Positions 38,575 through 45,438 of a DNA stretch of 64,000 nucleotides are shown piece by piece. Source of the stretch: Okamejei kenojei (lineage: Eukaryota); the NCBI GenBank assembly GCA_035221665.1, contig CM069148.1, positions 11,160,001 through 11,224,000 of the forward strand, given 5' to 3'. Both the position numbers and the translations under genes were made by a program. Positions within the stretch are counted from its first letter, which is position 1; every line of letters starts with the position of its first letter. The notes under the pieces were generated by a model. It did no database searches, was not told the origin of the DNA, and saw only the letters and a program-made list of their open reading frames with translations.

Positions 38575-38610
38575 GACAATGTTGACAAGAAGTCGGAATG
38601 CCCCATAAAG
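38575..38610 (+). other. PAX6: PAX6 5'UTR exon 2 (3' end certain, acceptor uncertain)
   Basis: atgccccataaag|gtgagt matches the human exon 2 end (ATGCCTCATAAAG|gtgagt). The nearest acceptor is tttccag ending at 38574. Confidence 0.7.
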
Positions 38611-41064
38611 GTGAGTTTACTTGCTCTCCTTGTATGTTGGTTATTGAATTTTGAATATATTGTTTTCACAATCCTCAATCGCGAGGAAAGATACATATCC
38701 TGCAAGTTTCCATCTTCGATTTATTGCACAACTCCGATTTAGTAAACATATTTCACACTTTAACCAGCTTTGTATCGTTGGCAGCTTGTTTGAAATATGG
38801 CTTTGGGCACATGAGTAATCTTCGAGCAGAAATATAAAACGCTGGGGAATCTGTAGGAAATTGAATGGGAATTTAGGTCAATTTACCGCCGTGGTGTTCA
38901 ATCGTTCGCCGGTCTTAACTTGTGGAGTGCTTTATTCCCCCCTAATCTCCCAATCAACGTCAGGAAATATTCATTTGTGTACATTTGCTGGGCTTGTACT
39001 AATAGCTGCCGATTTATTTTAACCGTAGACGGCCGCCACGCATCCGTTTATTTTACCAATGAAATAAATACATTTCTCAGAGGTGAACCAGAGAATTTAG
39101 TAAAATTTCCCTCAGCGAATGTAGCTCAAGGACTCTGTCAGCGTGCCGGCAATGTATCAGATATACTGTAACGTGGGTTTGTCTAACGTCACTTTTTCTG
39201 CATGTTTATAAGTAGTTTATGTTTATTAATGATAAGAAAGAGCAAAATAATTCACTCTAGGCCAAAGCTAGCTGTCTGATGCAGAAGCAATGACCCGATA
39301 ATGTATTGTGTCAGTTTGAATTAAGCAATCAGCAGATTCATTAGGGCCGCTTCCTCAATGTTTCCAACTCATATTTACTCTGTACCAACGTTTGGGTTTG
39401 TTTAAAACCTCGATATTACTATTCATTCTCATCTCGGGAATTAATGTTTAGCCAGCTAGCACCAGCCTGCACTTGTGCCTGCTAAAACGCAAAATAATCG
39501 AACAACGTGTCTCCTTCTCTATTGCAGTTTCCTTAAATTATTGCATAAAAATATCACCCGCTTCGCTACTTGTTTATTGCAAAATTTGTTTAATTTAGAA
39601 CAATTAATGTGCCGACAATTAAAAGATAGCACAGGCCGGCGAAAGGAAAAAAAAATTTGTGATATATTGTTTCGGGATGTCGTAAATTCAGAGCTCATTT
39701 AGATCTAACATATAATTTCAAATTCACTTTCAATGCAAGGCGCCAGGAAGACATTTAGCATTTAAAGGGCAGGAGTTTACAGATCTCACTCTGAACTAAC
39801 TACTCGCTATCCAAATAAATTAACATGGACTTCACCAGGCCGCGCTATCTAATAAACACATCGTAAAAAGATCAGTACAGGTTTATCTGTGAATGTGTAG
39901 AAGTATTTCTAGTGCATGCGTCTTCACAGTAAACAAAACAGTAAAATAGCAGCGTGAGTGGAAATTGTAAATAAATCCCGGTTTCAACAAAACCGAAGTA
40001 CCAGAATTTCCATGACTGATTTTTTTTTATATGGTCAGAAATGGAAATAGGTATGGCGGGGATTTTATGGCTATTCTGGTGCGCTTGTGGCGTTTAATTG
40101 AATAGTTCATAACATATACCCTCGGCCGGCCGTGAACGGCTGGGCAGCCAAAACAGTGTTACAGCTTGGGTCGAAATTTGCAGCAGGGCAGACGGAGGAA
40201 GACCACAATCGGTGGACTGCCGTCCGCACTTCGGCGTAAAAATGAAAGGGGGGTAAGATGGGACTCTGTATTTGGGCCTTTGATAAGCAATTGCCTGATC
40301 AGCACTTGTTTTTTTTTTCTCTCCCTGCACCGAGTCGACAATAGTAAACAGTGGGCTGAAATTACGGCACTGAAATATATCAGCTGGTGATTCCGTTTTC
40401 TATTATTTTAAAAATACAATTTGATAAGTCTGTAAAACAGCGTGTGAAATTTTCGGGGAGTGATAAATTGCTTTTTGCAATCCGACTAATTAGGAAGGCA
40501 TTTCCAGCCCTCCGGTAAGAAAAAAATCCATCATCGTTAAAAGATAGCAATGTGTTTGTGTATATGTTGATCAAATGTTGCAAATGCACCAGCCACTTCC
40601 TAAACCGAGGAAAGACTAATGAAGGTAGTTGAAATCTCCTGGTCAGCGACGGTTTCTGTTGGGTTCAGTTGGGGAAGTTAAGCGCCCGGGCATCGCCTTC
40701 GCGCTGACTTTTCTGAGTAATCAGGTAGTCACCCTTCGCTGCTGTAAATATTTACGCAGGAGAGCCGGCATGCTGGGAGAAAGTATTTGTTTGAAGTTTA
40801 TTTTTTTTGTGAGTGTGTGCGTGCAGGAATAGATAACAAAGCTAGTCTATAAATTATATTCCACCGATCTCTAATGAATAGAAAGAAGAGGGGAGGGAGG
40901 AAAAAAAAGCAAGCGTCCAGGAATTTGAGTTCAGATAGAATAGTGCGGGTGCTGGATGTGGGGGGGGGGGGGGGGGGGGGGGGGCAATGAGCGTCATGCT
41001 CAGGGTGGTAAAGGAAACAGAATGAAGTATTTGGAAAAAGAGAAGGTAAAAAAAAAAGAAAATG

Positions 41065-41255
41065 CAAGCTGGTCCATTTCGTTATTGTACCCCGCTTTTA
41101 GCAAACCCCTTCAATGGGACCTTTATTATAATTGTCTCTGCGCAATTGAGCGCCCCGCGGAGCTGTTGTATCTTTTTACAACCCTTTACAACCCGTACCA
41201 GCAACACAATTACCTCCAGATACTCATAACAGAAATTACTTGCTTTATTTCTGGA
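41065..41255. promoter_or_regulatory. Candidate conserved element in intron 2
   Basis: Complex Sox/homeodomain-motif-rich block (ttattgt, ataattg, caatta) between low-complexity G-rich flanks; not verified. Confidence 0.35.
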
Positions 41256-42343
41256 GGGGGTCGGGAGGGAGGAGGGAGGAGGGAGGGGGGGGGGGGGAGA
41301 AGAAAACAAAAGAAAATGATAATTCTGCTCGGTGACTGCTCGATGTTGGAAGTTGAAAGTCTTGAAGAGCGCGCTACGTTTAGCTGGACGCTGTGTTGCT
41401 GGTTGGGGAGTACGGGAGGGAGGGAGGGGCGGCTGGAGGAGAGGGGGTGGGGGGTGTCGGGTGCATGCTCGATGGGTATGGGCTGTAAGCAGAATAAAGA
41501 GCATTGTTCACATTCTGTAGTCTTTGTCGATCAGTTCTGACCCCCTCCCGTTACTGCTTTTTAAGCAGCCAGGCAAGGTAGACAGCGTGTGTCAGAATAC
41601 CTCAGTATAAAGAAGATCTAAAGACCGGGGAAGAAAGTTAATCATGAGTAACTAAGTTCAAAAGTGCGTTATGGTGTACAGTACCTTAAGGCCTTTTCTT
41701 GTTGTGGTTACAAAGAAAGCACAGGACTCAAGACTACCCAAACTGCGTGGACCATCGTGCAATAATGTCCGTAAACACAACCCCTCGGAGTTTATTTTCC
41801 CTTCCAAACCGGGCGCCAACACTTGAGTTTAAATATATCTTAAAGGTATTAAAATGAGACCACTTTCCGCCCACACTCGTGTCGTTATTACACAACGTTC
41901 TTGCACCAGGCAGGTTCACCAGCAACAAATTGAAGTCATTAGGCCGAGCGTGCGGCCCGAACGCTCTCGGAATCAAGAAACAAGAACCCCGTGTGTGCAG
42001 GCAGGCTAAGAGTGTGCATCTGTCGCGGTTCTTGAATCGAATAAAAAGGCTCTTCTCACTGTTCCCCGTGCACGGGAGAATTCCAGCGGAAATCCGTTGC
42101 ACCTCCAAATATTCAAAATAGAAAAAGCGTTCAGTAAGTATAGTACACCATGTTAAAAAGAGCAGACCCCGGTACAAACTTTACGCTTCTCATAGTCAGG
42201 GCCAGGCACCCATAAACTGCGGAATCTTTAACGAGTGATTTAGTGAAATTTAAATAGTGAAATTCTCGAAATTGCATCGATTATATTACATTAACACTAC
42301 TTCCTGGTTGCCATAATAAACTTTTTTTTTGCTTTTTCCATAG

Positions 42344-44369: not shown

Positions 44370-44720
44370 AGCAACCTTAAAATGAAGCTGTCCTTTCAGG
44401 GCAACGAGTGTGGTGCAATACGCTATGAATGATATACAAATGCGGACAGAAAGGGACGTTTTATCATGATACTATTTGTCGTGACGATGCGATTTTCAAA
44501 GTGGAACCGTGTCATGAAGTGACATGCCTGCCACAAGTGTTTGCGGCTGATCTTTTCAATTATCCTTCGTGCGCTATCCAAGGAGACTTCCGCTTATTTC
44601 TAGAAATTAAGCTCAAAGTTGACGTGCAGCTAGCTTGATTTTGGAGACAAATGTCAGCAAAGCTCATCATTTTCCCTCCTATATTCGGAGCTTATTTATG
44701 GCTAAGTGGCTTGGCTTTTT
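44370..44720 (+). promoter_or_regulatory. PAX6 intron-4 alpha / neuroretina enhancer (exon alpha region)
   Basis: gacttccgc.tatttc.agaaattaagctcaaa.ttgacgtgcagctag..gacaaatgtcag..gctcatcat..ggagcttattta and aagtgacat.cctgcca..ctgatcttttcaatta match the highly conserved human element as recalled. Confidence 0.85.
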
Positions 44721-45307
44721 GGACCAATTTAGCAGGCGTTCCTAGGGAGAGAAGAACAGGTTCTCCACGAGCTTCCTCCAGGGACACGGTAGCTGTCTGA
44801 GGTCCAGGTCCGGAGTCTTCACGGGCTTGCAATTACTGCCCCACTTCTGTTTCTGATAGGCAAATGCAGTGGTTTGCGGTCGGTGCATTGGATTTCACTT
44901 GTGATTTCATGAAAATCGCGCTTCTACTTGCAATGTTGGGTTGAGTCGAGTTTGCAACGAAAATTTTGCGGTGAATTGTTGGTTGCATCGCTCGATTAAG
45001 TGCTCTCTCGTCCGGTTTAGCGAAACAAAATGTTGCTTTTGTTGGCTCACTGGTTTTAACGCGCTGTTTGGGTCGATTAGTATGTTGCATTTTTTTTCGG
45101 TTTGGGGCAATTGAATCGACGCCTTCTTTGCTAGTCAGGTATTTTGATTGGCAGTTTCTGTGTTCAGAGGGAAAGAGCGCGTTTATAGGTCAGTTTTTGT
45201 TTTGCAATTGGGATATCTGGCGGGATTAACCAAGGCCGGTGTGAGGAGCGAACGTTGCTGAATATCGTCTCGGCCGTTGAGTATGTTCGCTGTTGCTTTC
45301 CCCTTAG

Positions 45308-45438
45308 GTCACAGTGGAGTGAACCAGCTCGGCGGTGTGTTTGTTAATGGTAGACCACTGCCTGATTCAACTCGACAAAAAATAGTGGAACTTGCCCACA
45401 GTGGAGCCCGGCCTTGCGATATTTCGAGAATCCTGCAG
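45308..45438 (+). CDS. PAX6: PAX6 exon 5 (paired domain, PAI subdomain)
   Basis: [43 protein letters not shown]; ttag|...cag|gtaaat; 131 nt. Confidence 0.99.

Follow-up and report, generated by a model that had tools for sequence, protein, structure and literature searches.

The 64,000-nucleotide (nt) stretch analyzed here, referred to as the window, comes from the skate Okamejei kenojei (GenBank assembly GCA_035221665.1, contig CM069148.1, positions 11,160,001 to 11,224,000) and carries Pax6 on its plus strand. We observe that the upstream open reading frame (uORF) in the leader of this gene starts with the residues MPHK, and since these residues and their position match the MxHK N-termini of other Pax6 proteins, with a compatible splice phase, the uORF likely preserves, as its own start, the start exon that Pax6 had in early bilaterians, now separated from the coding sequence (CDS) by exons 3 and 4, which were likely inserted in jawed vertebrates. 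We put the probability of this explanation, taken in full, at roughly 70%. A first-pass annotation of the same DNA, which was centered on the skipping of exon 3, missed both the match of the uORF start to the probable ancestral start of Pax6 and its shared phase with exon 5.

The upstream start codon and Pax6 N-termini across Bilateria

The paired box (Pfam match) lies in exons 5 and 6, and the longest coding match of the gene in the window shows 97.6-98.4% identity to Amblyraja/Leucoraja, 95.1% to Rhinoraja, 91.9% to stingray and 89.4% to catshark; it is the single Pax6 among 9 paired-box matches in the genome assembly. The region of exons 2-4 (38515-43200) was compared with contigs from 8 of 12 listed runs, namely six RNA-type runs (X1-X6) and two DNA runs of relatives. 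The RNA evidence consists of assembled contigs under two organism labels; the RNA-type status of the six runs is guessed and not on record (five of the six carry spliced joints), and contigs drop rare forms, so that a missing joint does not amount to absence. Run X1 has no contig over the Pax6 exons. The features on which the argument is built are the following.

38522..38610, plus strand: exon 2, 3' part, from contigs X3 and X4; the exon itself starts further 5', within or ahead of a TG repeat
38598..38610, plus strand: upstream ATG (uATG), MPHK codons and one base, followed by a phase-1 GT donor; opens the known PAX6 uORF and is likely a relic of the ancestral Pax6 start exon
42344..42407, plus strand: exon 3, 64 nt, with a GC donor; shared acceptor for three upstream exons; contains the uORF stop TAA at 42355-42357
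42678..42722, plus strand: exon 4 leader, 45 nt; homologous to the ray-finned coding extension and one base longer
42723..42732, plus strand: main ATG (the canonical jawed-vertebrate start) and phase-1 donor; chondrichthyan proteins begin here
45308..45438, plus strand: exon 5, first paired-box exon, 131 nt, with a phase-1 acceptor; contains the stop of the overlapping reading frame at 45345-45347; exon 4>5 loose ends in contigs
46010..46225, plus strand: exon 6, second paired-box exon, 216 nt

From the uATG at 38598, exon 2 runs for 13 nt up to its donor at 38610 and ends in MPHK plus one base (phase 1), in phase with the acceptor of exon 5. When these 13 nt are joined in silico to exons 5-6, the frame stays open for 120 amino acids (aa), and residues 1-40 of this 2>5 join are fully identical (40/40) to Pax6 of buzzard (P0373), hagfish (P0545) and crinoid (P0543), with 39/40 identical in brine shrimp, sturgeon and eel, 34/40 in an acoel and 32/40 in a tardigrade. 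Of 120 matches, 58 have MxHK immediately ahead of the paired box and 41 have it as their first residues, counts that are query-biased because the search was seeded with an MxHK protein; a whole-protein search seeded with sturgeon shows the same placement in 10 of 137 new rows. The carriers include acoel, acanthocephalan, rotifer, tardigrade, whipworm, chelicerates, crustaceans, insects, brachiopod, crinoids and hagfish. In several insects and a tunicate, the HK is kept but the Met is missing. Pro-His-Lys after an ATG has a chance of 5e-5 at the composition of the window, and the uATG site is the sole instance of M-x-H-K-N-GT on both strands of the window. The human PAX6 uORF starts with the same four residues.

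With respect to the splice point, blowfly isoforms (P0426 versus P0651/P0652) differ by an insert exactly after MPHK, which suggests that a splice point lies there, and the paired-box exons of echinoderms and hemichordates measure 347 bp (PMC4488758), a size equal to that of skate exons 5+6 (131+216). Vertebrate N-termini of the 2>5 type are found in 7 models among the 132 proteins listed (two of sturgeon, one of eel, one of whitefish and three of birds).

The match could also be a coincidence or a convergence, the uORF then being an ordinary vertebrate innovation kept only for damping. The shortness of the motif, the different starts of many invertebrate models and the closeness of a lysine codon plus G to the donor consensus would fit this explanation, which we nevertheless hold to be highly improbable, since the four residues, the position and the splice phase all agree (the chance of 5e-5 given above), hagfish bridges the gap between invertebrates and vertebrates, and 2>5 models are found in two distant vertebrate groups.

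Several observations weigh against an ancestral start exon. MxHK comprises only four residues, and the 62 of 120 matches without it include molluscs, the annelid Platynereis, sea urchin, the hemichordate Ptychodera, one crinoid and fly toy. Most MxHK entries are automated gene models, and the 2>5 models of birds, sturgeon and eel could be homology-guided. The basis for an intron after MxHK in invertebrates and hagfish is the blowfly isoforms and the exon sizes, not genomic DNA, and hagfish and gnathostome Pax6 may be paralogues of each other (PMC4122933). An exon 2>5 joint is absent from the skate contigs of the six RNA-type runs, in which rare forms are dropped, and no MxHK exon is found within 19.6 kb upstream of the skate Pax4-like paralogue.

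The Pax4-like gene itself (C21:39403640-39413640, L009-L012) has a paired box and a homeobox, and a close relative, P0466, starts with MSHK directly before the paired box.

Exon 3 and the alternative first exons in RNA contigs

With exons 2 and 3 joined, the uATG opens a uORF of 8 codons that stops at 42355-42357, 95 nt upstream of the main ATG at 42723 in exon 4 (42678-42732). The skate gene thereby shows the layout of the Pax6 exon 2-3 uORF, with the uATG in exon 2, the stop in exon 3 and, on loss of exon 3, an out-of-frame overlap with the CDS, the last of these in silico. Because 13+45=58 nt separate the uATG from the main ATG, the uATG is +1 relative to the main frame, and exons 2+4+5 give an open reading frame of 35 aa that ends at TAA 45345-45347 and overlaps the CDS by 50 nt. 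This frame is an in-silico join and corresponds to no observed transcript; the first-pass annotation had described it with the same length, the same 1-nt offset and the same stop, and we reproduce it exactly.

From this frame it had been proposed that exon 3 works as a splice switch, i.e., that it is a regulated cassette in skates and that its skipping shuts down Pax6 translation via the overlapping reading frame. The frame logic of this proposal holds, and the splice donor of exon 3 is of the GC kind, which is generally weak (intron 3 begins with GC at 42408-42409, making it a GC-AG intron, in agreement with the RNA joint). In addition, a teleost shows alternative splicing of exon 3 (PMC6480603), loss of the exon is regarded as repressive in humans (PMC7617937), and the wall-lizard model P0095 appears to pass from exon 2 to exon 4, with the boundary inferred from the peptide. 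Exon 3 is, however, present in every informative contig under both organism labels: the two contigs that leave exon 2 both enter exon 3 (joint 38610>42344, in X3 and X4, or 2/6 runs), and the exon 3>4 joint is found in 5/6 RNA-type runs. The exon 4>5 joint is likewise found in 5/6 RNA-type runs, as loose contig ends, and an exon 2>4 joint occurs in none of the contigs of the six RNA-type runs, from which rare forms are lost.

Two further first exons were recovered upstream of exon 2.

31062..31221, plus strand: upstream first exon, spliced directly to exon 3 (loose ends in X3 and X5); donor CAG/GT; 5' end approximate, estimated from the length of the loose contig end
35278..35532, plus strand: another alternative first exon, which an RNA contig of X2 joins to exon 3 through a loose end; the 5' end is a lower bound

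The former, probably P0 exon 0, lacks the exon 2 uATG and carries a 4-codon uORF at 31189. The latter has an ATG at 35457 in phase 1, which via exon 3 opens a 29-codon uORF ending at the same exon 3 stop (42355-42357) and which, on direct splicing to exon 5, would supply an N-terminus in the main frame. The 25 residues encoded by 35457-35532 are 96% identical to the N-terminus of the Amblyraja models P0135/P0140, which join exon 5 directly. Both first exons, ending at 31221 and 35532, enter exon 3 directly and without the exon 2 uATG, so that the RNA variation sits at the 5' end. Since three upstream exons all take exon 3 as their acceptor, exon 3 looks like a shared entry point rather than a cassette in the available RNA contigs. 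Furthermore, the human skip is described as a result of pathogenic variants and not as normal regulation (PMC7617937, PMC12822670), and the overlap peptide diverges freely among tetrapods, with a frame that appears changed in Xenopus laevis. We therefore regard a regulated exon 3 cassette in skates as unlikely, and a working switch is not shown by these contigs. The conversion on which it was built, from exon 3 skipping to an overlapping reading frame, stands as frame logic and is not new, having been published for human PAX6 as a mechanism of aniridia (PMC7617937, Fig. 3A legend); the human exon 2-3 uORF and its conversion to an overlap are also described in PMC12822670, PMC9943669 and PMC11062406.

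Other elements of the leader were observed alongside the exon 2 uATG. A second ATG in good context lies 19 nt 5' of it and opens a 9-codon uORF (38579-38608) that overlaps the uATG, and one base beside this second uORF, at 38578, is missing in two relatives. Exon 3 has an ATG of its own at 42372, with a 23-codon uORF that stops at 42711-42713, leaving 9 nt to the main ATG. The models of other vertebrates in the database place an exon 3 ATG in other frames, with an overlap in birds and mammals and an in-frame extension in axolotl and Xenopus, indicating that the exon 3 ATG element is not frame-conserved. As the contigs run upstream of 38522, exon 2 is longer than 36 nt, and a short exon 2 beginning at 38575 was ruled out, being unused in the two contigs that span this position. 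Long CT, CA and TG repeats occupy 38120-38510 between exons 1 and 2, and exon 2 of the RNA contigs enters the TG repeat.

The exon 4 leader and the ray-finned extension

The first-pass annotation had likened the out-of-frame reading of exon 4 to the N-terminal extension of teleost Pax6. The likeness itself stands: the skate +1 frame is identical to the ray-finned extension at 4-7 of 14 positions for all eight proteins tested, a score reached by 0/20,000 nucleotide shuffles for seven proteins and by 1/20,000 for one (p <= 1e-4), and the two other frames of the leader score negative. The restriction to teleosts, for which the extension has been termed teleost-specific (PMC3554528), does not stand, as Pax6 of sturgeons and paddlefish carries the 19-aa extension, starting with M-P-H, and the extension is thus older than teleosts. 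All 77 organism-named matches of the extension search are ray-finned fishes. That the extension is encoded from the exon 2 ATG without exon 3, as had been supposed, is in line with work on a teleost in which exclusion of exon 3 shifts the start to exon 2 (PMC6480603).

In skate, omission of exon 3 does not bring the exon 2 ATG into frame with that of exon 4 (58 nt, +1), and the contigs introduce no gap that would alter this. An assembly indel in the 45-nt leader was ruled out, the exon 4 contigs showing 0 gaps in 5/6 RNA-type runs (with 0 other letters in X2, X3 and X4 and 2 other letters in X5 and X6); the gap-free match in five runs and under two organism labels argues that the skate frame is not an assembly error. 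Among alternative exon 4 acceptors, 7 AG positions within 42600-42725 were scored, and the contigs use 42678; only one of the seven would restore the frame, and it lies 89 nt upstream without a good tract.

The spacing from the conserved exon 4 core to the main ATG seen in skate recurs in three bird models and one model each of lizard, frog and axolotl, is 6 nt longer (same frame) in three mammal-type models and is one base shorter in ray-finned proteins, with vertebrate spacings inferred from protein models rather than DNA and one rabbit model not parsed. This bears out the 1-nt difference that had been suggested to separate the skate state from the extension. The match between skate and sturgeon leaders fades over the last three codons, which would place the one-base loss within ~10 nt of the main ATG. 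The simplest reading of these alignments is a single one-base loss on the ray-finned side, before the sturgeon-teleost split, and we infer that jawed vertebrates originally had the 45-nt leader out of frame.

The polarity could be reversed, with an in-frame 2+4 extension ancestral for jawed vertebrates, a base gained separately in cartilaginous fishes and in tetrapods, and the skate +1 frame left as a decayed coding remnant. The skate +1 frame is indeed still near the sturgeon peptide (6-7/14), and if exon 2 once had a coding role, insertion of an exon in frame with it would be plausible. Such a history, however, requires two independent gains with identical spacing, skate, axolotl and frog resemble one another in the main-frame tail that precedes the ATG, and the last three +1-frame positions mismatch sturgeon, all of which make it quite improbable in our view. 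Against an ancestral +1 frame with a loss on the ray-finned side count the Xenopus laevis model P0170, which reads the exon 4 core in another frame, so that the +1 frame is not universal, and the set of N-termini compared, which is without gar, bowfin, bichir (model P0054 uninformative), coelacanth and lungfish.

The Huso huso model P0282 has seven extra residues between its exon 2 and exon 4 parts, which may stem from a short remainder of exon 3 or from faulty gene prediction. Downstream of exon 5, the acceptor of exon 5a is duplicated in 45700-45880, with a diverged copy at ~45716 and an intact 42-nt exon at 45839-45880.

A proposed history and its relation to known systems

Under the explanation we favor, the exon 2 ATG would have been the original start exon, joined straight to paired-box exon 5. 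Exons 3 and 4 would have arisen by insertion in the lineage leading to jawed vertebrates, with exon 3 bringing a stop and exon 4 a new start, whereby the old start would have become the 8-codon uORF ending in exon 3. Because exon 3 supplies the stop and exon 4 the new start, ribosomes may leak past the uORF or re-initiate at the exon 4 ATG, a step predicted to damp the output of exon-2 transcripts, and promoter choice would alter the set of uORFs present. In ray-finned fishes, the one-base loss near the main ATG would have made the 2>4 join, until then a repressive overlap, encode the 19-aa extension, re-coupling the old start, and direct 2>5 splicing would bring back the ancestral N-terminus. 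It is conceivable that the PAX6 uORF exon is, beyond being the original bilaterian start, a live hub, giving a damping uORF by 2>3 splicing, a repressive overlap or the ray-finned extension by 2>4 and a protein with the ancestral N-terminus by 2>5; we offer this wider proposal tentatively, at somewhat below even odds.

A clinically important uORF would in this way gain an origin, as a coding start demoted by exon insertion, and such a demotion would account for the conservation of its first codons over 400+ million years. The "teleost-specific" extension would be re-dated to before the sturgeon-teleost split and explained by one base. The same history predicts an overlooked exon 2>5 isoform of Pax6, and if 2>5 splicing works in mammals, joint removal of exons 3+4 would bypass aniridia variants in the 5' untranslated region and in the exon 4 start codon, a predicted splice-switching route for some aniridia alleles.

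The uORF, the pathogenic exon 3 skip and the fish extension are known, and the link to the ancestral start is new here. Filatova et al. 2021 is reportedly the primary study of the conversion of the PAX6 uORF to an overlapping uORF in aniridia. The link between the uORF and the ancestral start was not found in the literature searched, outside of which lay Filatova 2021, Lakowski 2007 and supplements, which may discuss it; the available parts of PMC12939529, PMC11541176 and PMC10516070 hold nothing on the origin of the uORF.

Human PAX6 shares with skate a uORF that starts in exon 2, stops in exon 3 and, when exon 3 is skipped, overlaps the CDS out of frame. The human overlap stems from pathogenic variants, whereas skate presents the same layout in a cartilaginous fish, with a start that is probably tied to the ancestral Pax6 N-terminus, a tie not mentioned in the available parts of the human aniridia accounts (PMC7617937, PMC9943669, PMC12822670, PMC11062406). 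The teleost extension (PMC3554528, PMC6480603) shares with skate the exon 2 ATG and a homologous exon 4 leader, reached without exon 3, but the extension of teleosts and other ray-finned fishes is in frame and the skate leader is +1. The Pax6/eyeless/toy proteins of invertebrates and hagfish that start with MxHK have the same residues as skate, at the same position before the paired box and in a compatible splice phase; there, MxHK is the coding start, whereas the skate MPHK feeds into a stop-bearing exon in all contigs seen.

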